A stretch of 63,773 bases of DNA, the filler included, from Caldilineae bacterium (GTDB lineage Bacteria; Chloroflexota; Anaerolineae; DTLA01), in NCBI GenBank assembly GCA_037446815.1. It is 3 parts of 3 records of this genome, joined end to end, with 100 filler letters (N's around TTAATTAATTAA, not from the genome) between each part and the next. Parts side by side here need not be neighbours in the genome. Positions count along the whole stretch, not along the records: positions 22,697 to 45,229 come from JBBIHX010000038.1; 2 more parts are not named here. The stretch is one strand, 5' to 3'. This document shows, piece by piece, positions 1 to 40,994 of the stretch. The position numbers were made by a program, and so were the translations under genes. Position 1 is the first letter of the stretch, and every line of letters begins with the position of its first letter. The notes under the pieces are model-generated. The model ran no database searches. It saw only the letters and a program-made list of their open reading frames with translations, and was not told the origin of the DNA.

Positions 1-29
1 AAGCGTTACAGCACCTGAACATCATCCAC

Positions 30-185
30 AAAGTTCCACCGGTGAGGTGACCCTGTCCGAAAGGCTGGGCCGAACGGGGGAAGTCCGGTGCTCCGCCAAC
101 GCGGAAAGTCCGGCGCTGTCCCGCAACTGTAGGTCTGGGCGATGGCTGCATCCCCAGACAAGCCAGGATACCCGCCTCACCGCGA
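30..185 (+). ncRNA. Cobalamin (AdoCbl) riboswitch
   Basis: Conserved order AGGT...GGGAAgtcCGGTG...aagtCCGGcgCTGtcCCgcAACTGT...aaGCCAGgatacCCGCC directly upstream of a btuFCD-type operon; boundaries approximate. Confidence 0.93.
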
Positions 186-247
186 TTCCAAGTACCTTCG
201 CGAGAAAGGGGGCTGGAAGATGAAGACGAGAATCTGCATTTGAGTCG

Positions 248-3601: not shown

Positions 3602-4945
3602 ATGACCAGAGCCTTTAGGTTGAGCCTTGTCCTGCTGATGTTGGCCGCGCTTGCGCTGAGCGGATGCGCCCAGGCCACGCCCACCCCGACGGCGACTCAG
3701 CCGCCCAAACCCACGTCGCCGCCAGCCGTCCAGCCCACGACCCCACCTACCCCGAAGCCCACGCCGGTAACCAAGACGGTCGTCATCGGCTTCACGTCGT
3801 CCAAGACCGGCTCCCAGGAAGTTCCATCTACGGGCCAGACACGCGGCCTGGAACTTTGGTTGGAGCAGGTGAACGCGACAGGGGTTACCTTGCCGGATGG
3901 CACCATCGTGAAGTTTGAGTTCAAGACCTACGATGACGAGAGCAACAAGGAGCGCGTGCAGCAACTGTATACCAAACTCATCAACGACGACAAGACGAAT
4001 TTTCTCATCAGCCCCTATTCCAGCGGGCTAACCGATGCCGCTGCGGTGATTGCCGAGCAGTACGGTCAGATCATGATCACCACCGGCGCGGCCTCGGATG
4101 CCACGTACCAGAAGGGGTACCAGTTGGTGTTCCAGTTGTACACGCCCGCCAGCCGCTACTTGACCGGCGCGGTGGATTTGTTGGCCAACCTTGACCCAAC
4201 CGCGAAGAAGATCGCCATCGTGCACGAGAACGACAAGTTCTCCACCGATGTGGTGAACGCCGCGAAGGCCTATGCCGAGGGCAAGGGGTACGAGATCGTG
4301 CTGTTTGAAGGGTACGACAGCGGCACGGCCGACTTTGCCCCCTTCATCAACAAGATCGTCGGCGTGGCGCCCGATGCCATCATGGGCGGCGGGCACTTCG
4401 CCGATGGCAGCACCTTCGCCAAGCAGATGTATGAGAAGCAGGTCAAGGCGAAATTCATCGCGTTGCTGGTAGCGCCGCCTGAACTGAAGTTTGCCGACAT
4501 CGGCGAGGCGGCCTTCGGCATCATTGGCCCAAGCCAGTGGGAACCGCAGGCGGCCTACTCGGAGGCCTCGGCCAAGGCAGCGGGGATTCCGTGGTACGGG
4601 CCGAGCGTGGCCGACTTCGTGAAGGCGTACAATGCCAAGTACGGCGAAGACCCAGCGTACCACGCCGCGGGCGGCTACGCAGCCGGCCTTATCCTGCAGA
4701 AGGCGATTGAGGACGCCGGCTCGCTGGACACCGACAAGGTGAAGGCCGCCCTTGATGCCATGGATGTGCTCACGTTCTACGGCCACGTCAAGTTTAACAC
4801 CAGCGCTGAAGCCCATGGCCTCCAGGTGGCCCATGAGATGGTCTACATCCAGTGGCAGAAGGATGCGTCGGGCAAACTGGTCAAGCAGGTAGTCTGGCCG
4901 GCCGAGGGCAAATCGGCCGACGCCATCTACCCGTTGAGCCGCTAG
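3602..4945 (+). CDS. livK: Branched-chain amino acid-type ABC substrate-binding lipoprotein
   Basis: Lipobox LSGC, Pro/Thr linker, YDDES and SPYSSGLT Peripla_BP_6 motifs; RBS AAGGAGG. Confidence 0.85.
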   Translation: MTRAFRLSLVLLMLAALALSGCAQATPTPTATQPPKPTSPPAVQPTTPPTPKPTPVTKTVVIGFTSSKTGSQEVPSTGQTRGLELWLEQVNATGVTLPDGTIVKFEFKTYDDESNKERVQQLYTKLINDDKTNFLISPYSSGLTDAAAVIAEQYGQIMITTGAASDATYQKGYQLVFQLYTPASRYLTGAVDLLANLDPTAKKIAIVHENDKFSTDVVNAAKAYAEGKGYEIVLFEGYDSGTADFAPFINKIVGVAPDAIMGGGHFADGSTFAKQMYEKQVKAKFIALLVAPPELKFADIGEAAFGIIGPSQWEPQAAYSEASAKAAGIPWYGPSVADFVKAYNAKYGEDPAYHAAGGYAAGLILQKAIEDAGSLDTDKVKAALDAMDVLTFYGHVKFNTSAEAHGLQVAHEMVYIQWQKDASGKLVKQVVWPAEGKSADAIYPLSR

Positions 4946-8603: not shown

Positions 8604-8681
8604 CGGGGCGTAGCGCAGACCGGCTAGCGCGCAGCGTTCGGGACGCTGAGGTCGGTGGTTCAAGTCCACTCGCCCCGACCA
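8604..8681 (+). tRNA. tRNA-Pro(CGG)
   Basis: Acceptor CGGGGCG/CGCCCCG, anticodon arm CAGCG-TTCGGGA-CGCTG, TTCAA T-loop, 3' ACCA; TGcTATAAT upstream. Confidence 0.97.
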
Positions 8682-15918: not shown

Positions 15919-16512
15919 ATGACTATCAAGCGGAAGAGCGCGCTGATAATCGTGGACATGCAGAACGATTTTCTGCCCGGGGGCGCATTGGCCATCCCCC
16001 AGGGGGACGCCATCTTGCCCAAGGTCAACGCTTACATCGCGCTGTTTGAGAAGCGAGGGCTTCCCATCATCGCCACGCGCGACTGGCATCCGCCGGAGAC
16101 CACGCACTTTCAGGTGAAGGGCGGCGTGTGGCCGATTCACTGCGTGCAGGGGACGCCGGGCGCCGCGTTTCACCCGGACCTGACGCTGCCGCAGGGGGCG
16201 GTTATTGTCTCCAAGGGCATGGGCGCAGACGAGGATGCGTATTCCGCGTTCCAGGCGCGGGATGCCGAGGGCCGGGCGCTGCCCGATGTGTTGCGCGCCA
16301 TGGGCGTGCGGCACATATACATCGGCGGGCTGGCGCTGGACTACTGCGTGAAGTTCACCGGCCTGGATGCGGCCCGTGAGGGGTTCGGTTGCACGGTACT
16401 GCTGGATGCCACGCGCGCGGTGAATCTCCAGGTGCACGACGCGGAACTGGCGCTGGAGGAACTGGTGCGGGCAGGCGCGGAAATCGCGGTCTTTGAACGT
16501 TTGACCGAATGA
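15919..16512 (+). CDS. pncA: Nicotinamidase
   Basis: VDMQNDFLPGGAL, DWHP, WPIHCVQGT, YSAF, ALDYCV. Confidence 0.93.
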   Translation: MTIKRKSALIIVDMQNDFLPGGALAIPQGDAILPKVNAYIALFEKRGLPIIATRDWHPPETTHFQVKGGVWPIHCVQGTPGAAFHPDLTLPQGAVIVSKGMGADEDAYSAFQARDAEGRALPDVLRAMGVRHIYIGGLALDYCVKFTGLDAAREGFGCTVLLDATRAVNLQVHDAELALEELVRAGAEIAVFERLTE

Positions 16513-22696: not shown

Positions 22697-22765
22697 TCGC
22701 TTCGCTCGCAACGACACACAAGGAGAGTGTCCATGCGTTTCACCAACACAAGATGAAACCGACTC
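22697..22765. mobile_element. MITE copy 3 (partial, scaffold start)
   Basis: ...CACCAACACAAGATGAAACCGACTC end. Confidence 0.72.
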
Positions 22766-22777
22766 CCCCCGCCGCGA

Positions 22778-22806
22778 TTGACAGAACCGTGCCCCCGCCG
22801 TATAAT
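22778..22806 (+). promoter_or_regulatory. Consensus sigma70 promoter of tRNA-Val
   Basis: TTGACA-17 nt-TATAAT. Confidence 0.88.
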
Positions 22807-22817
22807 ACATGCGCTGC

Positions 22818-22891
22818 GGGCGAATAGCTCAGTTGGGATGAGCGCCTCGCTTACACCGAGGAGGTCACAGGTTCGAGCCCTGTTTCGCCCA
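22818..22891 (+). tRNA. tRNA-Val(TAC)
   Basis: Acceptor GGGCGAA/TTCGCCC, anticodon arm CCTCG-CTTACAC-CGAGG, GGTTCGA; CCA not encoded. Confidence 0.96.
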
Positions 22892-22901
22892 CCTGTACAC
22901 G

Positions 22902-22934
22902 AGGCCGCCGCCCTGACGAGGCGGCCTTTGTTTT
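22902..22934 (+). terminator. Terminator after tRNA-Val
   Basis: AGGCCGCC/GGCGGCCT stem plus TTGTTTT. Confidence 0.75.
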
Positions 22935-22970
22935 CCTGGGGTTCACCGCGGAGATTCACCGCGGGGACAC

Positions 22971-23120
22971 GATTCGGTTCCAAAGTCTGTTGGTGGCCGT
23001 CATTGCGAGGGCGCGGAGCGCCCGAAGCAATCCCTGGGGCGTGAGGTTGCTTCGCTTCGCTCGCAACGACACACGAGGAGAGTGCCCATGCGTTCCACCA
23101 ACACAAGATGAAACCGAATC
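22971..23120. mobile_element. MITE copy 4, inserted into a CACCGCGGAGAC repeat
   Basis: GATTCGGTTCCAAAGTCTGTTGG...CCAACACAAGATGAAACCGAATC; flanks GGGGACAC/GGAGACAC (7/8). Confidence 0.8.
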
Positions 23121-23214
23121 GGAGACACAGTGCACGCAGAGAAAAAATCAAAACTCCTCTGCGCCCGCTGTGCCTCTGCGGTGGAGTAGGATCGGATTTG
23201 CAGGCGAGGATCCT

Positions 23215-25269: not shown

Positions 25270-25370
25270 NNNNNNNNNNNNNNNNNNNNNNNNNNNNNNN
25301 NNNNNNNNNNNNNNNNNNNNNNNNNNNNNNNNNNNNNNNNNNNNNNNNNNNNNNNNNNNNNNNNNNNNNT

Positions 25371-25640
25371 GGGCCCTCACCCCAGCCCTCTCCCGGTGGG
25401 CGAGGGTGCATGGCCGCGCGGGGCTGAGGCCGCTGCGGTGAGGGCGGGCTCTTGGGGGACGCGGCCCGGACCTGTCACCCTGAGCGGAGCGAAGGGTCTC
25501 GGTTCGCGAGATTCTTCGCCGCTTCGCGGCTCAGAATGACGGATTGTCGCGGGCGAGGGAGCTGGGCCCTCACCCCAGCCCTCTCCCGGTGGGCGAGGGT
25601 GCATGGCCGCGCGGGGCTGAAGCCGCCGCGCTGAGGGCAC
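25371..25640. repeat. Direct repeats of CCCTCACCCCAGCCCTCTCCC..GAGGG unit flanking a REP-like hairpin
   Basis: About 57-bp unit repeated at 25371 and 25565; GTCACCCTGAGC...GCTCAGAATGAC between them. Confidence 0.7.
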
Positions 25641-25752
25641 GCGCATAGGGCGTAGGGCAAGTTGGCAACTTGCCCTACGGGGGCGAGGATGTGAGCGCAT
25701 GGCCGCATGGGGCCACAGCCGCCGCGCTGAGGGTGCCGGGCAGGGGTGGACC

Positions 25753-27309
25753 TCAGAACCGCCCCATTCCCTCTGCGCTCTCTGGGTCTCGGCGGTGAAT
25801 ATGGGGTACACCGCGCACCAGGATGCTCCCGCCGTACCCCCAGCCGCCCTCGTCCAGGACCACGCACAGCGCCGCGCTGATGAGGAGGTCGTCATGACCT
25901 GCCGCTTCGGGCACGCACCAACGGATGCGCTGGCCCGGGCCGGGCAGGTACTCCACCTCCGCCGCCTCCACCTGCTCCCAGAAGAGACGGCGCAGCGCGT
26001 CCAGCGGCGCGGCCTGCGGATCGCCCGCGCATGGGCCGTGATCCCGAAACCGCCCCGCGTCGCAAGCGGCCATGAATCGCCAGCCGATTTCGGACTTGCG
26101 GGCCGCCGTGAACACGACGGGAATCACCCGCTCGTCCAGCGCCGACCGCAGCAGGTCGGTGATGCCCGCGCCCACGCCGGTGGCGTCGGCGACGATGGCC
26201 GCGGGATTCCACGCCTCGGCCAGCGCCCGAATCTGCCCATACAGCGTGCGGTGGTCCACGCTTGTCCATGCCCTGCGGTGCACCACGCGGTACACGGGCA
26301 GGCTCACGGCATCGTCGGCGTCAATTGCGACGATGGTGAGGGCCGTGGCGTCGTGATCGGCCGGACGAGGCGCGCCCCCCGTCGGCGGGTATCCATCCTC
26401 GGCATCCTCACGTGGCGCGGGCGCGGCGGGGCCGCCGAAATCCAGCAGGAAGGCGTAGGCGCAGTCGGCCTGGGGCGACAGATGGGGCTGGTGATTGCCC
26501 TGCATCAGGGCGCGGCGCTGGGGCGGGAACATCCCCGCGCCCGCGTCCAGTTCCTCCAGGAAGTACTGCGTGCGGATGAGGGGATGCTGGCGGCCCATGC
26601 GCGCCACTTCTTTCTCCAGGTGCGCGGCGTAGGCGGGGACTTCGGCGGCGACCACGTCGGCGGGAACCAGAAAGACGCGCCGAACGCCGTCGCGGGCCTC
26701 CTGCGCGCGGAGTTCGCGGATCACCCGCGCCAGGAGCGTGTTGCGCGTCCAGGCCGTACCGTAGAACACGGTGGTAACATTGGCCGACGCGCCCATGGGG
26801 GCGAAGTCCTTGTCCCATTTGTCGGGGTCCACGTCTTGGGCCTCGTCGCATTCCAGGAGGATGCTGGCCGTCTGGCCGACGACGTTGGCCTCCGGGTGGG
26901 CGCTGAGGAAGACGGCGCGCGCCTTGCCTACCGTGAGGACGTTGCCATGCTCGCGGGCAATGCGGCCCTTCGTCAGCGGATTCTCCAGCAGCGCGGCGAG
27001 GCGCTCCATGCTGACGACGGCCTGCGGCGCGAAGGTGGGCGCCGCCTTGACCAGCGTCCCCCCGACGCGCGAGTGCAGCGCCAACAGGTACGCCTCCACC
27101 TGGGCCGAGAGTTCGTTCTTGCCCGCCTGTCGGCTCATCATCACGGCGAAGGTCAGCCCGCGCCCGCGCAGGACGCTGTCCACGATGGCCTGGGCGGGCG
27201 CCAATTGATAGGCGCGCAGGGGCCGCGCCAGAATGTGGCGGCTGAACAGGTCTATGCGGCGCAGGATGTGGGTCAGCGCGCGCAGGCGCAAGGTGCGTCG
27301 GTCGGGCAT
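25753..27309 (-). CDS. Phage terminase large subunit-like protein (ATPase plus RNase H-like nuclease)
   Basis: LRAYQ Q-motif, Walker A SRQAGKN, Walker B LECDEAQ, YGTAW coupling motif, nuclease LLDFGG / DATGVG / HDDLLISAAL; RBS GAGGAG. Confidence 0.82.
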   Translation of the reverse strand: MPDRRTLRLRALTHILRRIDLFSRHILARPLRAYQLAPAQAIVDSVLRGRGLTFAVMMSRQAGKNELSAQVEAYLLALHSRVGGTLVKAAPTFAPQAVVSMERLAALLENPLTKGRIAREHGNVLTVGKARAVFLSAHPEANVVGQTASILLECDEAQDVDPDKWDKDFAPMGASANVTTVFYGTAWTRNTLLARVIRELRAQEARDGVRRVFLVPADVVAAEVPAYAAHLEKEVARMGRQHPLIRTQYFLEELDAGAGMFPPQRRALMQGNHQPHLSPQADCAYAFLLDFGGPAAPAPREDAEDGYPPTGGAPRPADHDATALTIVAIDADDAVSLPVYRVVHRRAWTSVDHRTLYGQIRALAEAWNPAAIVADATGVGAGITDLLRSALDERVIPVVFTAARKSEIGWRFMAACDAGRFRDHGPCAGDPQAAPLDALRRLFWEQVEAAEVEYLPGPGQRIRWCVPEAAGHDDLLISAALCVVLDEGGWGYGGSILVRGVPHIHRRDPESAEGMGRF

Positions 27310-27388
27310 GGTCATCTCCTCGTGCTGGGGCGGCGTTTGTCTGTGGGCCCGCTAATCCCTTGTTTCGCACAGGCTATCGGCCCATGCT

Positions 27389-27401
27389 GCGTTGATAAGG
27401 G
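27389..27401 (-). promoter_or_regulatory. Upstream motif CCCTTATCAACGC (copy A, terminase leader)
   Basis: Identical to 33968-33980 and in the same orientation relative to the downstream gene. Confidence 0.55.
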
Positions 27402-27507
27402 TGAACATGCGCGGCTTGCCCGCCAGGCGGCCCTGCGCTACAATCCATCCGAAACGGGCTGCCACCCATGGCACCATCTGTGGCACTAACCCCAGGAGGT
27501 GAGGATC

Positions 27508-30500
27508 ATGAGCCGATCCGGGTCTTCATCCCAACTCGGCGACGCCGACTACAGGGCGCTGTTTGATGGCCTGCCCGTCGGCGTGTACCGCACGACGCCC
27601 GATGGCCGGGTCCTGATGGCCAACCCCGCGCTCGCCCGCATGTTGGGCTACGCCTCGCCCGAAGAACTGATGCGGCTCAATTTGGAGAAAGAGAGCCTAG
27701 GCGACGAGTACTCCCGCGCCGAGTTCAAGAAGCGCATGGAGCGCGACGGCTTCATCGTGGGCTGGGAGACATCGTGGGTGCGCCGCGACGGGAGCCGTGT
27801 CTTCGTGCGCGAATCGGCCCGGGCCATCCGCGACGACAGCGGCAAGATTTTGTATTACGAGGGCGTTGTGGAGGACATCTCCGAGCGCAAGCAGGCCGAG
27901 GAGGCGCTGAGGGCGTCGGAAGAGCGGCTGCGCATCCTGTTTGAGTACGCGCCCGACGCTTACTATCTCAGCGACCTGAAGGGCGTGTTCGTGGACGGCA
28001 ACCGCGCGGCCGAGGAGATGGTGGGCTACAAACGGGAGGAACTCATCGGCGGGAGTTTTCTGAAGTTGAAACTCCTCTCGCCGTCGCAGATCCCGCGGGC
28101 GGCGGCGCTCCTGGCCCGCAATCTCCTGGGGCAGCCCACCGGCCCCGATGAGTTCATCCTCACCCGCAAGGACGGCTCCAAGGTCGTAGCGGAGATTCGC
28201 ACATACCCCGTCAAGATTCACGGGCAGTCGCTGGTGTTGGGCATCGCCCGCGACGTAACCGCGCGCAAGGAAGCGGAGCGGCAGATCGCCGAGCGTCGGC
28301 TGTACCTGGAGGCGGTGCTGGCCGCCGCGCCCGACGCCATCATCACGCTGGACGCGCAGCACCGCGTGGCGGAGTGGAACGCGGGGGCCGAGCGCCTGTT
28401 CGGCTACACCCGCGACGAGGCTGTCGGCAAGAACCTGGACGACCTCATCGCTACGGCTCATGCTCGCTCCGAGGCCACCGCCCTCACTACGCAGGTGATG
28501 AGCGGCGAGGCCGTCCCGCCCACCGAGGTCATCCGCTATCGCAAGGACGGCTCGCCGGTGAATGTCATCGTCGCAGCGTCGCCTGTGCTCGTGGAGGGGC
28601 ACTTCATCGGCGCGGTGGCCGTGTACGCCGACATCACCGAGCGCAAACGGGCCGAAGAGGCCCTGCGAGAGAGCCAGGAGCGACTTCAAGACTTCCTGGA
28701 CAACGCCACAGACCTGATTCAGATGGTGGACATGCAGGGGCGGTTCTTGTACGTCAATCGCGCGTGGCGCAAGGCCCTGGGGTATTCCGAGGCCGAGGTC
28801 CCCGGCCTGACCCTGCCGGACATCATCCACCCTGACTCCATGGATCACTGCATGCGGCTGTTCGGGGACATGGCCGCAGGGCAGTGCAATGTGGTGAACG
28901 TGGAGGCGACGTTCATCACCAAGGATGGCCGGCCGATTCAGGTGGAAGGGAACGTATCCTGTCGCATGGAGAACGGCAAGCCCATCTCCACGCGGGGCAT
29001 CTTCCGCGACATCACCGAGCGCAAACGGGCCGAAGAGGCCCTGCGAGAGAGCGAGGCCCGCTACCGCGCCCTGTTTGACAACATCCCCATTGGCCTGTAC
29101 CGCACCGCGCCCGACGGGCGCATCCTGGACGCGAATCCGGCCCTGCTGGAGATGCTGGGGTACGCAAGCCTGGAGGAATTGCAGCGCGTCAGCGCCGGCG
29201 ACGTGTACCTGAACCCCGCCGACCGCGCGCGCCAACAGGAGATTTTGGAGCGCGACGGAGTGGCGCGCGCCTTTGAGCAGCAGATGCGTCGCAAGGATGG
29301 CTCGGTCATCTGGGTCCTGGATAACGTCCGCGCCATCCGCGATGCCGACGGCCGCATCGTCTGGTACGAGGGCAGCCTGGAGGATATCACCGAGCGCAAG
29401 CGGGTGCAGGAGGAACTCCGCAAGGCAAAGGAAGCCGCCGAGGCCGCCAATCGCGCCAAGAGCGAGTTCCTGGCCAACATCAGCCACGAAATCCGCACCC
29501 CCATGAACGGTATTATCGGCATGACCGAACTCGCCCTGGATACCGAACTCACGCCCGAACAGCGCGAGTATCTCACCATGGCGCGCAACTCCGCCGAATC
29601 GCTCCTGCGCATCCTCAACGACATCCTGGACTTCTCCAAGATTGAGGCAGGCAAACTGGACATGGAATCCGTCCCGTTCAGCCTGCGCGACTGCCTGGGC
29701 GACACGATGAAGGCGCTGGCGGTGCGCGCGCACAACAAGGGCCTGGAACTGGCCATGGACATCCCGCCCCATGTCCCAGATGCCCTGGTGGGGGATCCCG
29801 GACGGCTTCGCCAGATCGTGGCCAACCTGGTGGGCAACGCCATCAAGTTCACCGAGATGGGCGAGGTGGTGCTGTTCGTGGAGTGCGCCGAGGAGACGGA
29901 CGAGGAAGCGGTCTTGCAGTTCGCCGTGGCCGACACGGGCATCGGCATCCCGAAGGAGCGCCAGCAAGCCATCTTTGAGGCGTTCACGCAGGCCGACAGT
30001 TCTACCACACGCCAGTACGGGGGTACCGGCCTGGGTCTGACCATCTCGTCGCGGCTGGTGCAGATGATGGGCGGCAAACTGTGGGTTGAGAGCGAAGTGG
30101 GCGTCGGCAGCACGTTCTACTTCACGGCCCGATTCGGCATCCAGAAGGGCGTGAGTGTCTGGCCCACGGCGGAACTGGGCGACCTGCGCGGCCTGCCCGT
30201 CCTGGTGGTGGATGACAACGAGACCAATCGGCGCATCTTGCAGGCTATGCTGACCTCGTGGGGATGCCGGCCGGTGCCCGCGGCGAGTGGCCGCGAGGCG
30301 CTGGCCCTGGCGCGGGATGCTGCCAAGAAGGGCCGCCCCTTCCCGCTGCTCCTCACCGACGTGCGCATGCCCGAGATGGACGGCTTCATGCTGGTGGAGC
30401 AGGTTCATGGGGACGCAGCGCTGGCCGATGTGCGGGTCATCGTCCTCTCGTCGGCGGGCATGGTGGGCGACGCGGCGCGCTGCCGGGAATTGAACGTGTG

Positions 30501-31389
30501 CGCATACCTCATCAAGCCGGTCAAGCAATCCGAATTGCTGAACGCCATCCTGACGGTGATGGCTCCCAAGGAGGCCGAGGTCGCCCCGCCGCCCTTGGTT
30601 ACGCGCCACACGCTGCGCGAGATGCGCAGCCGCGTGCGCGTGCTCCTGGCCGAGGACAACCCGGTGAACCAGCGCCTGGCAGTGCGACTCCTGGAGAAGC
30701 GCGGCCACCTCGTTACCGTCGCAAACAACGGGCAGGAGGCGCTGGCAGCGCTGGAACGCGAAACGTTTGATGTGGTGCTCATGGATGTGGAGATGCCGGT
30801 CATGGATGGATTCGCGGCGACGGCCGAAATCCGCAAGCGCGAACAGGAGACCGGCCGGCATATCCCCATCGTGGCGATGACCGCCCATGCGATGAAGGGC
30901 GACCGCGAGCGGTGCCTGGCGGCCGGCATGGACGACTACGTGCCCAAGCCCCTGCGCGTAGAGCAACTGATGGCGGTCATAGATCGCCTGACTTCCGGCC
31001 GCAGCGAGGCGCCAGCGCCTGCCCAGGCGGAGGCGGCGGTGGGAGCAGAACCGGCGTTTCGCATGGACGTGGCGCTGGAGCGCGTGGGCGGCGATGAAGA
31101 CCTGCTGCGCGAAATCGCGGGCATGTTCCTGGAGGAGTCGCAGGGACTGCTGGAGCAGGTGCAGCAGGCCATCGCCGAGGGGGACGCTACCCTGCTCAGG
31201 CGGGCAGGCCACACGCTGAAGGGCCTGGCGCGGAACTTCGGGGCGGAGGAGGCGGCGCAGGCGGCGCTGGCGGTGGAGCAAATCGGCGATGAGGGCCGCA
31301 TGGACGAGGCACCAGCGGCGGCGACGCGATTGCGGGCCGAGGTGGACCGGCTCTGCCAGGCCCTGCGCGAGTTCTTGGGAACGCAATAG
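27508..31389 (+). CDS. Cytoplasmic hybrid histidine kinase (5 PAS, HisKA, HATPase, 2 REC, Hpt)
   Basis: Five PAS/PAC modules ending D(I/V)(T/S)x[20 protein letters not shown], two receivers, HTLKG Hpt. Confidence 0.93.
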
Positions 31390-31456
31390 GATTCACCGCG
31401 GAGACGGAGAGCACGCAGAGAAAAATCAGAATTCCTCCGCGCCCTCTCCGTCTCTG

Positions 31457-31606
31457 CATTCGGTTCCATCTTGTGTTGGTGAACCGTAGGCATACTCTCC
31501 TCGTGTGTCATTGCGAGCGAAGCGAGGCAATCCCACGCCCCGGAGGTTGCTTCGGGCGCTCTGCGCCCTCGCAATGACAGCCACCAACAGACTTTGGAAT
31601 CGCCTC
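31457..31606. mobile_element. MITE copy 5, inserted into a CACCGCGGAGAC repeat
   Basis: Same termini; flanks CGTCTCTG/CGTCCCTG (7/8). Confidence 0.78.
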
Positions 31607-31655
31607 CGTCCCTGCGGTGCAGTCAGCGTTCTCCGCGGTGAATCCAGCCGCAGGG

Positions 31656-32723
31656 CTACCCGCCGCTCTCCGCCAGCCGGCGCTTCACGTGGCCGATGTT
31701 GGCGATGCGTGTCGGGTCCTCGCCGTTCAGCAGCGCCAGATAGTAACTCACCCAGTCGCCGAAGTGCACCAGGCTCAGCACCTCGGCCAGGCGACTCCCC
31801 CCTCTGGGACGCACCGCTTCCCACGCGATGCCGTTCCTGTCCAGCACCTCGCCCGTGATGTCGCAGCGCAGGGCGTTGCGCGGGTGGTAGCGCTCGGACC
31901 GCAGGATGAACACGGTGAGCGGCGCGCCAACACCGTCGGGATGGCCGAACCCCTCCACGACGTTATGGCATAGTTCCGGCAGGATGGCGTGCCCCGCGAA
32001 GTTCTTGGCGTTCTCGTTGAACTGGCCTTGCCACCGCGCGGCGACCTGGGCCAGGTGCTCCGCGCCGTAGGCGAAGGGGATGCGGCCGCGCAGCCGCAGC
32101 GCCATCTGCTTGGCGGCGTTTTCCTCGGCGGGCACGCGCGGGGCCAGTTCCGCGCCCCAGTGTTCCACGACGGCAGCAGCATCGGATACGTCGGCGCTCT
32201 TGTCGGCCACCCAGCCCAACTTCTGCGCGATGGCGAGCAGCGGGATGAGGGAATATCCCAGCGCCGCGCGGGGTTGGCCCTTGAACGGAATCGTGTACGT
32301 GGGCGCGCCCCACTCTTTGGCCAGGCGCAGGAGTTCGCCGCCCGACGCCAGGGCGATGATGCGCGCGCCGCGCTCGCGGGCCTGCCGCGCCGCCGACAGC
32401 GTCTCCTCGGTGTTGCCCGAATACGACGAGGCGATGACCAGCGTCCGCTCGTCCACGAAGGCGGGCAGGTCATAGTCGCGGCTGATGACGAGGGGCACAG
32501 GGCACTCCCCGGCGATAATGCCCTGCAGCAGCGCCCCGCCGATGGCCGACCCGCCCATGCCGGCGATGACGGCATTCTCGGCCAGGGCGTAGTCCGGCGG
32601 CAAGGCCAACTCGCGCGCCGCCGCCCATGCCTCGCGGCAGTGCCGGGGCAGGTCGGCAATGGCCTCGCCCATGCCCGACGGGTCCAGTTTCCGCATCGCG
32701 TCCACATCGTCTAGAAGTTCCAC
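31656..32723 (-). CDS. Bifunctional phosphoglucose/phosphomannose isomerase
   Basis: GMGGSAIGG, SYSGNTEETL, QPRAA, FNENAK, PELCHN, DWVSYYLA. Confidence 0.92.
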   Translation of the reverse strand: MELLDDVDAMRKLDPSGMGEAIADLPRHCREAWAAARELALPPDYALAENAVIAGMGGSAIGGALLQGIIAGECPVPLVISRDYDLPAFVDERTLVIASSYSGNTEETLSAARQARERGARIIALASGGELLRLAKEWGAPTYTIPFKGQPRAALGYSLIPLLAIAQKLGWVADKSADVSDAAAVVEHWGAELAPRVPAEENAAKQMALRLRGRIPFAYGAEHLAQVAARWQGQFNENAKNFAGHAILPELCHNVVEGFGHPDGVGAPLTVFILRSERYHPRNALRCDITGEVLDRNGIAWEAVRPRGGSRLAEVLSLVHFGDWVSYYLALLNGEDPTRIANIGHVKRRLAESGG

Positions 32724-32751
32724 ATGTCCTCCCGTGTTTCACCGCATGGAC

Positions 32752-33633
32752 TCACCGCCGGGGCGCGGAGGACGCGGAGGAAGCGCCCGATTCTCCCTGT
32801 GCGTCCTGCGCCTCCCCGGCGATCTGTCGCGTCATTGAGTAGAGCAGGCGTTTGCGCCAGCCGGAGCGGGCGGCTACGTCCGCCGCGGCGTCGCGCACGC
32901 TCCAGCCCGCGGCCAGACGCTGGGCCAGCGCCGCCCGCACCTGCTCCTCGCTCCACGCCTGCGGCTCGGCGGCGCCGCCGATGACGAGCGTGAACTCGCC
33001 GCGCGGCGCATGCTCGGCGAAGTGCGCCCGCGCGCCGGATACCGTCCCCCGCCACATCTCCTCGTGCACCTTGGTCAACTCGCGGGCGATGGCCACGGGG
33101 CGGTCGCCCAGCGTGTCCAGGATGTCGGCTAGGGTATCCAGGAGGCGGTGCGGGGCTTCGTACAGCACCAGGGTTCGCCGCTCCCCGCGCAATGCCTCAA
33201 GCGCCCTGCGCCGCTCGCCGGCCTTGCGCGGCAGGAAGCCGACGTAGACGAAAGCGTCCGTCGGCAGGCCCGATGCGGCCAGCGCCGCGACGATGGCCGA
33301 GGGCCCTGGCACCGGCACCACCGGGAAGCCGCGCTCCAGCGCCGCCCGCACCAGTTCGTAGCCCGGGTCGGAGATGCCTGGCATCCCCGCGTCCGACACC
33401 AGGGCCACGTCGCCCGTCTCCAGCGCCGCCAAGATGGCGTCCAATTTGGCGAGTTTGTTGTGTTCAAAGTAACTGGTGGTGGGCGTGTGGATGTCGTAGC
33501 GCGCCAGCAGCGTGCGCGTGTGGCGCGTGTCCTCGGCGGCGATGAGGGAGACCTCGCGCAGGATGCGCAGCGCCCGCAGAGTGATGTCCTCCAGATTGCC
33601 GATGGGTGTCCCCACCAGATACAGCGTGCCCAC
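32752..33633 (-). CDS. rsmI: 16S rRNA (cytidine1402-2'-O)-methyltransferase
   Basis: GTPIGNLEDITLRAL, AAEDTR, SDAGMPGISDPG, YEAPHRL, RELTKVHEE. Confidence 0.95.
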   Translation of the reverse strand: MGTLYLVGTPIGNLEDITLRALRILREVSLIAAEDTRHTRTLLARYDIHTPTTSYFEHNKLAKLDAILAALETGDVALVSDAGMPGISDPGYELVRAALERGFPVVPVPGPSAIVAALAASGLPTDAFVYVGFLPRKAGERRRALEALRGERRTLVLYEAPHRLLDTLADILDTLGDRPVAIARELTKVHEEMWRGTVSGARAHFAEHAPRGEFTLVIGGAAEPQAWSEEQVRAALAQRLAAGWSVRDAAADVAARSGWRKRLLYSMTRQIAGEAQDAQGESGASSASSAPRR

Positions 33634-33716
33634 CGTTCCCTCCTTGAGCGCCCGCATTATAGTCCGATGGGCGCGGTGTGTCCATTTTGCGCGGGGCGCG
33701 GCTGGGGGATGAGATG

Positions 33717-33900
33717 CACCACGGAGAGCGCGGAGGGCGCGGAGCATGCAGAGAAAAATCAAAATCCCTCTGCGCCCTCTCCGTCTCCGCGGTGCAGTAA
33801 GCGTTCACCGCGGAGATGCAAGACGCCGAGACAACCCGGAGGGCGCGGAGAAACCTAAGAAAAACCCTGCGTCCTTTGCGCTCCCCGCGCGTTCACCCCC
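33717..33900. repeat. Tandem CACCGCGGAGA..GCAGAG/CTCTGC..CCGCGGTG hairpin repeats
   Basis: Two adjacent imperfect palindromes; same family near 22944, 31394, 32754 and 40667-40980. Confidence 0.65.
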
Positions 33901-33967
33901 AGAGGATGAAAACGGTGCTGCCGATTTTCGGATCGGGGCATGCGGAACGTCGCCATACCCCTGCCTG

Positions 33968-33980
33968 CCCTTATCAACGC
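33968..33980 (+). promoter_or_regulatory. Upstream motif CCCTTATCAACGC (copy B, connector/tail leader)
   Basis: Exact match to the motif upstream of the terminase gene. Confidence 0.55.
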
Positions 33981-34030
33981 GGGCCACGCGTGTTACAACA
34001 GGGCCAACGACCTGCAATGGGAGGTTCGCC

Positions 34031-34476
34031 ATGCCCTTCGCCAATCGCAGCGAATTCCTTGCCGCCATCGCCCGCGACCTGGGCGACCCCGACGGCGCTA
34101 CCTGGACGTCGGACGACCTGTCCCGCGCCCTGGATCATGCGCTCAGCGACCTGGCCGATGCCATCGGCGCGCCGGCCTCGGTGGATGTCCCCGCCGATGG
34201 CTCCGACACCTACGACCTGGCCGCCCATCCGGACANNNNNNNNNNNNNNNNNNNNNNNNNNNNNNNNNNNNNNNNNNNNNNNNNNNNNNNNNNNNNNNNN
34301 NNNNNNNNNNNNNNNNNNNNNNNNNNNNNNNNNNNTGGGTGTCGCGCCGCTACGAACTCCAGGGCCAGCGGCTCCAGGCGCAGTTCCGCGACGCGCTGGC
34401 CGAACTGCGCCAGGCCCGCGAAGATGTGCCGTACTGCCCAGGCCAGACCCCTGCGTGGTACGATGCCGACGAGTAG
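34031..34476 (+). CDS. Putative phage head-tail connector/adaptor-like protein (interrupted by 100-N gap)
   Basis: N-terminus ARDLGDPDGATWTSDDLSRALDHAL resembles gp15/gp6-type adaptor starts; RBS GGAGG; helical C-terminus after the gap. Confidence 0.55.
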
Positions 34477-34526: not shown

Positions 34527-36449
34527 ATGATTCCCATGTCCGAAACCTTGCAGGCGGCGGTGAAGTCGGAGCGGCGGGTCCCATGCGCCCGCCTCTCCAT
34601 CCGCGACCGGCAACTGCGCTGGTCGGCGATCCATGGGGACGGGGACGAGAGCGCGCTCCAGACGGCGCTGGCGGTGGCGTCCGGCGGGGCGTGGGTGCGG
34701 GCGCGGCTTGGGGCGGGAGGCGCGTTCCAGGTTCAGCGCATCGCCGACCCCGAAGACCCCGACGATTGGGAAGCCTGGGACACGTTGCTCTCCTCGGGCG
34801 CGGCCAACGATGTCGCCATCGCCGCCGAGGGCAACCTCGCGCGCGCCTTCTGCATCGTGGCCGAGAGCGGCGCGTGGCGGGTCAAGGTGTGGGTCTCCGG
34901 CGACGGCGGCGCGACGTGGGCGGGGCCGGCCGTCGCCTGCGAGTCCTCCGCGGCCATCACCAGCGTTGCCAGCCCCGCGCCCGACGCCATCGCCTGGACG
35001 TCCGGCGGCATCCTGCGCCTGTCGCTATGGGATGGCGCGGCGTGGGGCGAGGCGGCGGCGTGGAGCGCGGGCGCCGTCCTGGCCGATTACGGCATCGCGT
35101 GCGCGCGGCGCGATGGCGTGTACCGCTTCCTCCAGGCCGGGCTTCTCGCCGACGGCGCGTACCTGCGGGCCGTGTCGTGGGATGGCGTGGCCTGGTCCGA
35201 GCCGTGCGCGGTCGTCCCCACAGGCATCCCCGCCGATACGCTCATCCCCCGCTGGCCGTCGCTGGCATGGATTGGCGATCGCCATCTCGCGGCCTACCTG
35301 GACACCTTCGCCGGCAGCCTGACCTACCAGACGCCCACCGTGCGTTTCTCCTGGGACTTTGAGCACTGGTCCTATCCGTGCGCCCTCAACCTCAACTCGG
35401 ACGGGCCGACGCGGGCCAACATCGCCCTGGACGCGGATCGGGCCGTGGCCGTCATGGAGAACTCGGCGCTGGCGGCTTCGCTGGGGCGCTCGCTGGAAGG
35501 ATTCGCCGGCATCTTGCGGGCGGAACGGGTAGAGGCCGAGGGCTATGGCTCGCTGCGAATGCTGCTGCACGGCGACGCCGCGCTGGAGTGCGCGCCCCTG
35601 TTGCCCTACGCGGAGGCGGTGCTGAGCCTGGGGTATCGCACCCAGGCGGGGTGGGAAAGCGTTGAGGCCGCGCCCATGTACATCGCCTCGGTGCACCGCG
35701 CCCGCGGCGAATCGCGGCCCGGAGCCGAGGTGCTCGTGCACGCCCGTGATGGCTGGGGCCTTCTGGTCGAATGGCAGGCGCTGACGACCGAGGCGTGGGA
35801 GAACGTCTCGCTGGGCTGGCTGCTGGCGGAAATCCTGATGCGGGCGGCGGGGTTGCGCCTGCGAACGGACAACGCGCCCGCGTGGGAGGCCACGGTGGCC
35901 CGGTTCGCCATTCCGCGCGGCGCGCACGGTCATGCCGTCGTTCGCCAACTGCTGCGCCACGCCGGGGCGCGTGCGCGGTGGGACGCAGACGGCTCCCTGT
36001 ACGCCTTCCTGCCGGCCGCCCAGCCGTGGGCCTGCGACTGGGCATTTGACGCCGAGGTTGCGCGGGCGAGGCATGGCGTGGCCAGCGCGGGCGTTACGCT
36101 GGCGCGGGTCGCGGGGCTGTACCCGGCCATGGGCCAAGCGCAGGACGCGTGCGCCGCCCAGCAGCAAGGCCGGACCCTGGGCGCGGTGGCGGATGACGGG
36201 TACCTGACCACGTCCGCGCAGTGCGCCGAGGCCGCGGCGGCCCTGGTGGCCCAGGGGACGGCCCGCGCGCTGAGGGGCAGTCTCACCACGGCCATCGTCC
36301 CGGGGCTGCAGGTGCTGGACCGGGTTACGGTGGACGACCCCGCCCTCGGCCTTGTCGCCGCCGAACGCCGCGTGGTCGCCATTCGCACGGTGTGCGACGC
36401 CCTGCGCGGGGTCTGGCAGCAGACGGTGGACGTGGAGGGCCTCGCGTAG
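34527..36449 (+). CDS. Putative phage tail/baseplate-hub-like protein with N-terminal beta-propeller
   Basis: Asp-box SGDGGATW, Trp-rich beta region; C-terminal ...AEAAAALVAQ...GSLTTAIVPGLQVLDRVTVDD...RRVVAI typical of tail hub proteins. Confidence 0.6.
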   Translation: MIPMSETLQAAVKSERRVPCARLSIRDRQLRWSAIHGDGDESALQTALAVASGGAWVRARLGAGGAFQVQRIADPEDPDDWEAWDTLLSSGAANDVAIAAEGNLARAFCIVAESGAWRVKVWVSGDGGATWAGPAVACESSAAITSVASPAPDAIAWTSGGILRLSLWDGAAWGEAAAWSAGAVLADYGIACARRDGVYRFLQAGLLADGAYLRAVSWDGVAWSEPCAVVPTGIPADTLIPRWPSLAWIGDRHLAAYLDTFAGSLTYQTPTVRFSWDFEHWSYPCALNLNSDGPTRANIALDADRAVAVMENSALAASLGRSLEGFAGILRAERVEAEGYGSLRMLLHGDAALECAPLLPYAEAVLSLGYRTQAGWESVEAAPMYIASVHRARGESRPGAEVLVHARDGWGLLVEWQALTTEAWENVSLGWLLAEILMRAAGLRLRTDNAPAWEATVARFAIPRGAHGHAVVRQLLRHAGARARWDADGSLYAFLPAAQPWACDWAFDAEVARARHGVASAGVTLARVAGLYPAMGQAQDACAAQQQGRTLGAVADDGYLTTSAQCAEAAAALVAQGTARALRGSLTTAIVPGLQVLDRVTVDDPALGLVAAERRVVAIRTVCDALRGVWQQTVDVEGLA

Positions 36450-39201: not shown

Positions 39202-39206
39202 GGACG

Positions 39207-39354
39207 GGGTCGGTTTCATCTTGTGTTGGTGAACCGCATGTACACTCTCCTCGTGTCGTTGCGAGCGAAGCGAAGCAACCCCACGCCTCGGAGATTGCTT
39301 CGGGCGCTCCGCGCCCTCGCAATGACAAATACCAACAGGCTTTGGAACCGCGTC
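39207..39354. mobile_element. MITE copy 6 (no TSD visible)
   Basis: CGGTTTCATCTTGTGTTGG...CCAACAGGCTTTGGAACCG. Confidence 0.76.
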
Positions 39355-39370
39355 CGTCACCCCCATCCTA

Positions 39371-39836: not shown

Positions 39837-40727
39837 ATGCGCGTGGTCATCTCGGCGTCGCGCCGCACCGATTTGCCGCGCTGCTACCCCGAGTGGCTGG
39901 CGCAGGTGATTCGCGAGGGCGAAGTGGACGTGCCTCTGCCCTACGGCCGTGGCTCGCGACACGTTTCCCTCCGGCCCGAGGATGTCCACACGGTTGTCCT
40001 GTGGTCCAAGGACTTCGGCCCTCTCCTGGAGAACCGCGGCGGCCTGCGCGATGCCCTGGCGCGCTACGAGCAGTGCTACGCCCTGTTCACCATCACGGGC
40101 TTGGGCGCTTCGCCGCTGGAGCCTTCGGTGCCGCCCTGGCAGGATGCGATCCGCCAGTTGGGCGCGCTGGTGGATTTCGTGGGTGACGCGCGGCGTGTGG
40201 CCGTGCGGTTTGACCCCATCGTTCACTGGACAGAAGCGGGCGCCGTGCGGAACAACATGCCCTACGCCGAGGCGATTTTCCGCGCTGCCGCCGAGCACGG
40301 CATCCCCCGCATCATCTCGTCGTTCGCCCAGATGTACGACAAGGTGCGGCGGCGCGACTGGCCCTGGCACGACCCGCCCGCCGAGGAGAAGGTGGCCATC
40401 GGGCGGCAACTGCTGGCCCTGGCGCGGGCCTGTGGCCTGTCGCTGCGGGCCTGCTGCGACCCGTTCCTGCTGGCGGCGGGCGCGGAGCAGTCCCACTGCA
40501 TAGATGCCGCGCTGCTGACGGAACTGCACCCGCGCGGCCTGGTTGCCGACCCGCGCCCCGACAAGGGCCAACGTGCCGGATGCGGCTGCACCGTCAGCGT
40601 GGACATCGGCTCGTACAGGCAGCGCTGCCCGAACGGGTGCCTGTACTGCTACGCTAATCCGTATTCACCGCGGAGAAACGGAGAACGCAGAGAAAAACCC
40701 AGAATTCCCTCTGCGTCTCCACGGTGA
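39837..40727 (+). CDS. DUF1848 family protein
   Basis: ISASRRTDLP, RFDPI, GQRAGCGC, DIGSY...CPNGCLYCYAN. Confidence 0.9.
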   Translation: MRVVISASRRTDLPRCYPEWLAQVIREGEVDVPLPYGRGSRHVSLRPEDVHTVVLWSKDFGPLLENRGGLRDALARYEQCYALFTITGLGASPLEPSVPPWQDAIRQLGALVDFVGDARRVAVRFDPIVHWTEAGAVRNNMPYAEAIFRAAAEHGIPRIISSFAQMYDKVRRRDWPWHDPPAEEKVAIGRQLLALARACGLSLRACCDPFLLAAGAEQSHCIDAALLTELHPRGLVADPRPDKGQRAGCGCTVSVDIGSYRQRCPNGCLYCYANPYSPRRNGERREKPRIPSASPR

Positions 40728-40980
40728 AACCCACTGCACCGCNNNNNNNNNNNNNNNNNNNNNNNNNNNNNNNNNNNNNNNNNNNNNNNNNNNNNNNNNN
40801 NNNNNNNNNNNNNNNNNNNNNNNNNNNNNNNNNNNNNNNNNNCAGAGAAAAACCCAGAATTCCCTCTGCGTCTCCACGGTGAAACCCACTGCACCGCGGA
40901 GAAACGAAGAACGCAGAGGGGAAAAACCAGAATCCCCTCTGCGCCCTCTGTGTCTCGGCGGTGAATTTCCTCCGCGGTGA
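40667..40980. repeat. Tandem CACCGCGGAGA hairpin repeats (collapsed at gap 40743-40842)
   Basis: Identical CAGAGAAAAACCCAGAATTCCCTCTGCGTCTCCACGGTG on both sides of the gap. Confidence 0.65.
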
Positions 40981-40994
40981 ATCCCCCGAAGCCG

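Follow-up and report, generated by a model that had tools for sequence, protein, structure and literature searches.

Scattered phage-like genes headed by a shared promoter-like motif in a genus of Anaerolineae: a putative regulon for a gene-transfer-agent-like particle

Two phage-like units of a Caldilineae bacterium (Chloroflexota; Anaerolineae), one holding the gene for a large terminase (terL) and the other, 6.5 kb away on the opposite strand, the genes for a head-to-tail adaptor and a tail hub, are preceded by the same 13 bases. What could hold the two units together? The stretch of DNA that raises this question (the window; 63,773 bases) joins, through runs of N, contigs C37, C38 and C49 of one metagenome-assembled genome (MAG), here called G000. 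As argued below, the motif probably marks a regulon for a domesticated particle resembling a gene transfer agent (GTA), in which a private class of promoter would be read by a dedicated sigma factor or activator.

G000 spans 3.19 Mb in 265 contigs (65.6% G+C, completeness 93.6%, contamination 2.9%). Its order in GTDB comprises five species only, all of a single genus, and the other four are referred to as the sister species G001–G004. Both copies of the 13-mer lie on scaffold C38 (window 22697-45229), which is interrupted by 100-N gaps at 25270-25369, 34236-34335 and 40743-40842. The features that matter first are the following (window coordinates; aa, amino acids).

27389..27401, minus strand: motif copy 1, exact match, the predicted extended -35 region of the large-terminase promoter, with TTATCA at 27398-27393
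27371..27376, minus strand: -10-like TAGCCT of terL, 16 nt after TTATCA, the sole 16-nt spacer among 29 sites
25753..27309, minus strand: large terminase gene (terL), a single-gene unit (Pfam Terminase_6C, 1e-7; PHROG terminase large subunit, 3.7e-7)
33968..33980, plus strand: motif copy 2, exact match, the predicted extended -35 region of the adaptor-hub promoter
33994..33999, plus strand: -10-like TACAAC of the adaptor gene, 17 nt after TTATCA and preceded by TGT (extended -10-like)
34031..34476, plus strand: putative head-to-tail adaptor gene, in pieces 34031-34235 and 34336-34476, split by the second gap
34527..36449, plus strand: predicted 640-aa tail hub, second gene of the adaptor unit (AlphaFold model, mean predicted local distance difference test, pLDDT, 78.4)

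The exact 13-mer, CCCTTATCAACGC, was verified at both positions given in a preliminary description of this DNA; each copy is oriented toward its own gene, and the window has no third exact copy. Copy 1 ends 80 nt before the terminase ATG (27309; a further in-frame ATG lies at 27315), and copy 2 ends 51 nt before the adaptor ATG, which is at 34031 and not at 34032; the preliminary description had the latter spacing right, at about 50 nt. It had also stated that neither leader carries a clear TTGACA/TATAAT promoter, and indeed a consensus scan of the gene strand found no match in either. Taken by itself, such a pair is weak evidence, because chance pairs are common: from base composition we calculate that such a window should hold about 200 pairs of 13-mers by chance. 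With two mismatches allowed, the window has 3 matches where 1.23 would be expected, a number that 13 of 100 shuffles attained as well. The significance of the motif therefore comes from its position and from genome-wide and cross-species checks.

The motif as a promoter-like element

The whole of G000 contains three exact 13-mers and seven exact copies of a 10-mer core, CCCTTATCAA, against one copy of the reversed control; same-composition 10-mers have on average 2.06 copies in this genome. All seven core copies lie 58-92 nt upstream of a start codon that has a ribosome site of the GGAGG type, whereas just 3.9% of the copies of same-composition 10-mers fall 40-130 nt upstream of a same-strand called start. 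In a position-weight scan of G000 the seven sites scored 21.5-27.2 bits. Above 20 bits, a correctly spaced TA hexamer was found at just one more site, the promoter of a gene on contig C137 that is discussed below, and the runners-up, at 20.1 and 19.1 bits, are coding-looking and lack the TA hexamer. The suggestion that the motif could serve to find the rest of a regulon was borne out, as on other contigs it led to the portal, the protease-capsid fusion and three more units.

Protein searches of the four sister genomes yielded 22 orthologous units, with orthologues of terL, of the portal, and of the proteins designated p301 and p147 in 4/4 genomes each. Far from falling at random with respect to phage-like genes, or being absent upstream of orthologues, the motif heads 22/22 of these units. 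Exact 10-mers number 5 in G001, 5 in G002, 4 in G003 and 4 in G004 (reversed control, 3 in total), and 18/18 of these copies lie upstream of orthologues of G000 units. As it was the search pattern itself that retrieved the exact copies, the independent evidence is that the motif is missing from no orthologous unit and occurs nowhere else. The exact 10-mer heads terL in G003 and G004 as well, and the full 13-mer the adaptor in G001, G002 and G003. In the remaining four units the place of the 10-mer is taken by variants with one or two mismatches, in register with the -10.

CCCTTGTCAA: G002 terL
CACTTGTCAA: G001 terL
CACTTATCAA: G004 p301
CTCTTATCAA: G003 p102

While the motif is kept, the species differ in spacers, in upstream flanks and in leader length, so the motif behaves as a phylogenetic footprint.

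Alignment of the 29 sites (7 in G000 and 22 in the sister species) revealed a regular architecture. A TA-initial hexamer follows TTATCA in 29/29 sites, with a spacer of 17 nt in 28 and 16 nt in one; its last base is T in 16/29, and its end lies 26-71 nt from the start codon. The terL promoters keep TAGCCT or TAGGCT in 5/5 species, and TACAAC is identical across all four adaptor promoters. The motif thus fills the -35 slot, in which A replaces the G of the housekeeping hexamer in 27/29 sites and the conserved bases extend beyond the hexamer to a stretch of 10-11 (CCC before, AC after). The conserved core is CCCTTATCAA(C); the terminal CGC of the 13-mer holds in 10/29 sites. With hexamers 16-18 nt apart and a -10 starting with TA, the sites are organized as sigma-70-type promoters are, yet their -35 is not the organism's TTGACA: the intergenic DNA of G000 has 133 instances of TTGACA-N17-TAnnnT versus 3 with TTATCA in the same slot. 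Judging from sequence, the 13-mer is best explained as the extended -35 region of promoters that form a private class, with the consensus (t)cgCCCTTATCAAc and 17 nt from TTATCA to TAnnnN. Since TTATCA lacks the G of TTGACA and at least 10 bases are invariant, such a promoter would be read only with a dedicated trans-acting factor. Phage T4 middle promoters, which depend on a MotA box and on 'sigma appropriation' by AsiA, provide an analogy of mechanism only; they and the promoters of phage- or ECF-type alternative sigma factors (ECF, extracytoplasmic function) likewise combine a good TAnnnT-type -10 with a conserved, non-canonical substitute for the -35 that needs a dedicated protein.

Other kinds of site fit less well. 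Promoters of ECF sigma factors usually have an AAC-containing -35 and a CGT-type -10, and as a rule they also drive the sigma gene itself; most of our sites contain CAAC, yet the -10 is TAnnnN and not CGT. No unit has a LexA-type box (GAAC-N4-GTTC), all 12 intergenic boxes of G000 being elsewhere. The preliminary description had also seen a loose continuation, GGGCC..TGT..AACA(A)GGG, after both copies and considered a small RNA element formed by CCCT-AGGG pairing. That continuation is not conserved, AGGG occurring within 60 nt in only 3/29 sites; neither window leader has an Rfam match at the gathering threshold, and the motif, being upstream of the predicted -10, would not be transcribed. We therefore abandoned the RNA reading. 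The other proposal of that description, a site for a dedicated activator or alternative sigma factor that co-ordinates scattered particle genes, is supported by the 22/22 orthologue leaders, the fixed register of 16-17 nt and the non-housekeeping -35.

Dispersed units and their predicted products

The motif heads seven phage-like units in G000, each one or two genes long. The best explanation of the data is that there are six such dispersed units per species, seven in G000, each with its copy of the putative private promoter, and that together they encode a minimal phage-like particle: terL, portal, a fusion of prohead protease and major capsid protein (MCP), adaptor and hub, p301, and a pair of membrane and zinc-finger proteins. 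The units outside the window are as follows.

C171: prohead protease-MCP fusion, 619 aa (Phage_capsid_4, 1.3e-38; phrog_4523, 4.4e-47)
C208: portal, 387 aa (phrog_10963, 1.2e-25)
C56: p301, 301 aa, of no family, spike-/receptor-binding-like
C259: start of the gene for a second, diverged p301 copy, with its own motif copy
C145, first gene: 97-aa membrane protein with one strongly and two mildly hydrophobic stretches (holin PHROG, E 0.09)
C145, second gene: p147, a putative 147-aa zinc-finger protein with a conserved N-terminal C-x4/5-C...C-x2-H motif, otherwise helical

The terL family conserves a Walker A-like RQAGKN, a Walker B LLECDEAQ and the acidic residues of the nuclease. For the adaptor, the N-terminal 68 aa give a weak match to Pfam SU10_adaptor (1.6e-3, below the cut-off), and 3 of 8 aligned members of the family match it, the best at 1.9e-7; an intact orthologue in G003 has 204 aa (L038:10594-11205). 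The hub model suggests an N-terminal sialidase-like beta-propeller followed by a C-terminal hub of the Mu gp44/gp27/VgrG kind, and Foldseek against PDB returned baseplate hubs and central spikes (7aef_q, 4.4e-16; 1wru, 5.8e-16; 3cdd, 2e-15) as well as the sialidases 2w38 and 1wcq; none of the 16 hub homologues is named. The MCP fusion also matches the scaf_prot_MCP2 fusion models of NCBIfam at 2e-52, below their own cut-offs. p301 has no match in Pfam, PHROG or NCBIfam and, in Atlas, only viral hypothetical clusters (0.83), and its N-terminal domain recurs beside the adaptor or hub genes of relatives. Homologues of p147 stand directly upstream of terL in three relatives (G036, G105 and G059), the usual place of a small terminase. 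Profiles of the adaptor and of p147 matched no PDB sequence up to E 1.

Two observations concern p301 itself. Its C-terminal domain (39-47% identity) recurs within larger phage-like open reading frames (ORFs) of G002 (L057 on C253 and L058 on C115), and receptor-binding domains may have been exchanged between p301 and resident prophages. Directly upstream of the second p301 promoter lie genes for a TdeIII-type restriction endonuclease and a DNA methyltransferase (C259:86-2168, minus strand; L005); the end of that endonuclease gene precedes the p301 promoter in 4/4 sister species.

The units are embedded among ordinary host genes. They are bounded by convergent or divergent genes for a CitMHS transporter, DnaJ, GAF and hybrid kinases, a metallophosphatase, rubrerythrin, RsmI and PGI, and no integrase or replication gene adjoins any unit of G000. 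In G004 the MCP and terL genes each lie inside contigs of 60-62 kb, between orthologues of ordinary G000 genes, and one contig carries both MCP and p301, separated by 29 kb. Assembly does not account for the dispersal. The arrangement varies between species: the adaptor promoter, adaptor and hub directly follow terL in G003 but are flanked by RsmI and a GAF-PAS gene in G000 and G001, the portal is 1.3 kb from the p102 unit in G002, and MCP is 9.6 kb from it in G001. In G001 and G002 the portal is followed by a further gene; its G000 counterpart, on C203, is served by a separate TTGACG-N17-TACACT promoter and was left out of the regulon.

The units also evolve as their neighbours do. Relative to G000, the unit genes show synonymous divergence (dS) of 0.34-0.76 and ratios of non-synonymous to synonymous divergence (dN/dS) of 0.05-0.25, lowest in the portal (0.05-0.08) and 0.18-0.20 in both terL and the hub; the host neighbours (kinase, PGI and RsmI) have dS of 0.38-0.60 and dN/dS of 0.15-0.23. 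Amino-acid identities of the units (73-96%) are inside the range of the flanking genes, and their G+C content at third codon positions (GC3; 0.85-0.90) matches that of neighbouring genes. GTAs are recognized as chromosomal phage genes inherited vertically under purifying selection, which is what we observe here, with units in 5/5 species of the lineage.

Two further features of the window adjoin the terminase unit.

27499..31389, plus strand: hybrid histidine kinase, 1296 aa (Pfam: 5 PAS, HisKA, HATPase, 2 receiver and Hpt domains), given as context, with no claim that it belongs to the regulon
25370..25752, no strand: tandem repeats of families D3 and D7, resembling repetitive extragenic palindromes (REP) or miniature inverted-repeat transposable elements (MITE), between the terL stop and the scaffold gap

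The kinase gene is divergent from terL, with the promoters back to back, in G000, G003 and G004, where the terL neighbourhoods were examined; its promoter-like TTGCCC-N17-TACAAT at 27416-27444 has its predicted -35 15 bp from motif copy 1. Another kinase, a 1628-aa multi-GAF hybrid kinase, is convergent with the p102/p147 unit in G000, G001, G002 and G004. Repeats similar to those after terL precede the adaptor promoter (33742-33837) as well as the C56, C145 and C171 units. Palindromic REP/MITE-like families occupy window positions 22697-23180, 25370-25750, 31391-31610, 33742-33837, 39206-39358 and 40663-40981, examples being ...CATTGCGAGCGAAGCGAAGCAATC... and CACCGCGGAGA...GCAGAGAAAAA. Such repeats crowd the intergenic DNA around the units, which explains the contig breaks, and they coincide with contig ends and scaffold gaps.

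Related elements and known systems

The portal family occurs in 70 of 301 sampled Anaerolineae genomes (50/176 genera), nearly always as a single copy. Relatives in other families are 43-55% identical to the G000 genes in terL, 33-46% in the portal and 25-32% in the protease-MCP; they also carry the adaptor, the hub and the p301 N-terminal domain, either clustered or split over two loci. We inspected 13 related loci, among them those listed below, and read the upstream regions of eight.

G037 (C132): terL, portal, MCP, adaptor, hub and a p301-like gene in one 9-kb block, with TTGACA-N17-TATGGT and no LexA box
G036 (C162): p147-like gene, terL, p102-like gene, portal, 82-aa gene and MCP
G020 (C15) and G077: portal-to-hub blocks
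G134 (C4): contiguous relative
G150, closed genome: unrelated-looking genes between MCP and adaptor
G105: two loci, 145 kb apart

Five of the eight upstream regions, from five other families (G036, G020, G134, G105 and G207), carry a TTGACA/TGGACA-N17-TATAAT-type promoter followed by a LexA-type box, TAGAAC-N4-GTTCTA; no clear promoter was seen in the regions read for G150 and G077. With up to two mismatches, CCCTTATCAA was found in promoter position at 0/5 related loci scanned, and no shared motif was recognized by eye in the half-split elements of G150, G077 and G105. The motif would thus be a novelty of the five-species genus, in which it replaced, unit by unit, one SOS-controlled promoter. 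According to the scheme that we propose, an ancestral SOS-driven cluster would have been broken up, each fragment keeping or acquiring one special promoter; all units would then be switched on together, either by an alternative sigma factor or by a protein acting at the -35 as activator or sigma remodeller, and the product would be a domesticated GTA-like (viriform) particle that packages DNA.

Two features of the relatives stand apart from this comparison. The 82-aa gene of G036 has a homologue in G000 (C88:1992-2240, plus strand; 82 aa; 35% identical), which we considered as a regulon member and rejected, as it lies in an imuA-imuB-dnaE2-like cassette (SOS mutagenesis, by ORF reading) and has no motif. 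In the related elements of G020, G134 and G105, intergenic spacers of 100-450 nt (L065:7140-7560, minus strand; L125:15070-15535 and 16170-16480, plus strand; L153 leaders) consist of short tandem repeats, e.g. TTCGAC, CAGCGGT/CAGCAAT and CTCAGGATGC.

Among systems in the literature, the closest that is described in the passages cited here is the GTA of Rhodobacter capsulatus (RcGTA) with its activator GafA. Passages of PMC5026251 give RcGTA 24 genes at five chromosomal loci, and passages of PMC9638019 describe GafA as binding near the -10 and -35 of RcGTA promoters and acting through RNA polymerase. The likeness lies in phage-derived particle genes that sit at several host loci, would here too be jointly activated and evolve with the host under selection. 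Unlike here, RcGTA keeps its head, packaging and tail genes in one cluster of about 15 kb, and only accessory loci (head spikes, fibres, lysis and regulator) are apart; in the Chloroflexota genus terminase, portal, capsid and adaptor-hub are separate, each with a promoter copy. The GTA of Caulobacter crescentus (CcGTA) is described, in passages of PMC11150451 and PMC9632790, as a silent domesticated prophage-like cluster turned on by GafYZ, and there as one long operon read through by anti-termination, whereas here there are many short units with their own promoters.

Known GTAs are confined to a handful of lineages and have their head and packaging genes in one cluster. Among the papers listed by literature searches on GTAs in Chloroflexi and Anaerolineae and on scattered head genes, with subscription journals and supplements outside the coverage, none deals with a system of this kind, and the gene content looks like that of an undescribed, fully fragmented GTA-like system. 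If so, a second phylum would have a widespread phage-derived element, which in one lineage has been dismantled gene by gene and is united by a shared promoter. A scattered element would no longer be mobile as a unit, and the scattering would thus be a clear genomic signature of domestication. The regulon would be compact (one 10-mer, six or seven units) and part of a natural series of a prophage becoming a host organ. It would also supply a rule for searching MAGs, namely lone head genes together with a private promoter, where a terminase or capsid gene standing alone is usually written off as a prophage leftover. In addition it would define an orphan promoter class, the reader of which would be a sigma factor or an activator.

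Candidate readers and competing explanations

Leads to the reader are the nine sigma-70-family genes of G000, a 172-aa protein encoded on C137 and the zinc-finger protein p147. Element-encoded sigma factors are suggested for this phage-like family by genes in three other Anaerolineae families, namely ECF-sigma-like genes directly after the portal in G059 (L129:8385-9332, minus strand; Pfam Sigma70_r2, 1.3e-7, and r4_2, 9e-7) and in G105 (L126:10748-11314, plus strand; weaker matches), which are 33% identical to each other, and a related sigma gene 3-4 kb from MCP in G131 (L127:2723-3382, minus strand). The hybrid kinase with an Hpt domain beside terL recalls the CckA-ChpT-CtrA pathway that controls RcGTA, though here the parallel is one of synteny only.

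The C137 protein (G000 C137:3316-3831, minus strand; L062; promoter at about 3840-3925) has eight invariant cysteines and one invariant histidine. It is found in 4/4 sister genomes (83-88% identity, dN/dS 0.17-0.20) and, bar one weak match, in none of 36 genomes of other families searched; it has no match in Pfam, PHROG or NCBIfam, and its Atlas scores are at most 0.84. In 5/5 species it has a good promoter of the housekeeping kind that carries a LexA-type box, TAGAACAAA[C/T]GTTC; in G000 this is one of the 12 intergenic boxes, three of which are at two lexA-like genes. The likeness to the motif that brought up this promoter in the scan was examined as a possible eighth site and is confined to G000; the sister species read CGCTTGTCAAAATC or CCCTTGTCAAAATC with TATAAT/TACAAT and the LexA box. 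We therefore take it for an ordinary SOS promoter, and the protein is a candidate new SOS gene product. Its predicted SOS induction and genus restriction would fit a relay from the SOS response to the regulon, but many genes are genus-restricted, and we treat this as a lead only.

Several results weigh against the GTA-like regulon proposed here. Every genome is a MAG, and genes were called with our own GC3-based caller, which registered 4/7 core copies at 40-130 nt from a start; the other three were placed by sequence reading (one gene is cut by a gap, one runs off its contig and one is an ORF open at the contig start). By count alone seven copies are unremarkable, as 7.7% of same-composition 10-mers get to seven. 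The G001 and G002 terL promoters have TTGTCA, closer to the housekeeping -35. Tail tube, tape measure, endolysin and a clear small terminase were not found, and the holin and zinc-finger calls rest on weak matches (E 0.03-0.09). The hub was found in 3/4 sister genomes and not in G004 (95% complete), and MCP in 3/4 and not in G003 (98% complete), so that a complete set is not established for every species. As to the reader, the motif is upstream of 0/9 sigma genes of G000. An ECF sigma factor of the element type was tried and rejected, as a profile built from the three genes singles out no G000 sigma gene (seven match, at 9e-13 to 4e-5), and no orthologue stood out in G001–G004 either. The structural model of the C137 protein is unusable (pLDDT 52.5), and distant elements have no homologue of it.

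Some of these results would suit other explanations. The motif might be a repressor operator laid over a weak housekeeping -35, with the primary sigma factor reading the units once the repressor is removed. A TAnnnN at 17 nt, frequently preceded by TGn, would suit that sigma factor, the TTGTCA of two terL promoters would be read by the housekeeping enzyme, and related elements, with their LexA boxes, are repressor-controlled. However, the site is non-palindromic, its -10 register is fixed in 28/29 sites where operators are often variably placed, the units have no LexA box, and TTATCA is nearly unused by housekeeping promoters (3 vs 133), which makes this explanation unlikely. We consider it quite improbable that the units are decaying prophage remnants, or belong to a genuine phage genome that was misassembled or misbinned, and that the motif is a late promoter of that phage with no function for the cell: they are intact in five independently assembled species with dN/dS of 0.05-0.25 and host-like dS, the terminase keeps its catalytic motifs, GC3 is like that of neighbours (0.85-0.90), and units lie inside contigs of 60-73 kb among orthologues of ordinary G000 genes. 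Such an origin would account for the short G000 motif contigs that break in repeats, for the tube, tape-measure and lysin genes not found and for the MCP or hub missed in one sister each.

The REP/MITE-like repeats, which lie directly upstream of 3/7 G000 sites and around both window sites, could also mean that the motif is the footprint of the recombination or insertion (the end of a MITE or insertion sequence, or a cassette site) that moved the units, its promoter look being incidental, and the different placement of the promoter-adaptor-hub block in G003 versus G000 and G001 would agree with this. Yet the upstream repeats are specific to the lineage, the orthologous sites in the sisters having none, the units share no sequence beyond about 13 nt, and the 17-nt register of the TA hexamer with 26-71 nt to the start suits a promoter and not a recombination site; this we judge very improbable. 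The GTA-like regulon can be cast in a more specific form, that of an 'atomised' phage whose private promoter is read by a sigma-type or sigma-remodelling factor released by the SOS response (e.g. the C137 protein), and which is the end point of a break-up series in Anaerolineae running from contiguous SOS clusters to two-locus forms with their own ECF-like sigma. We put forward this fuller version only tentatively, as it is rather doubtful as a whole.

Elsewhere in the window, a cobalamin riboswitch (63 bits; 28-193, plus strand) lies at the start of C37, and two tRNA genes are found at 8604-8678 and 22818-22891, both on the plus strand.

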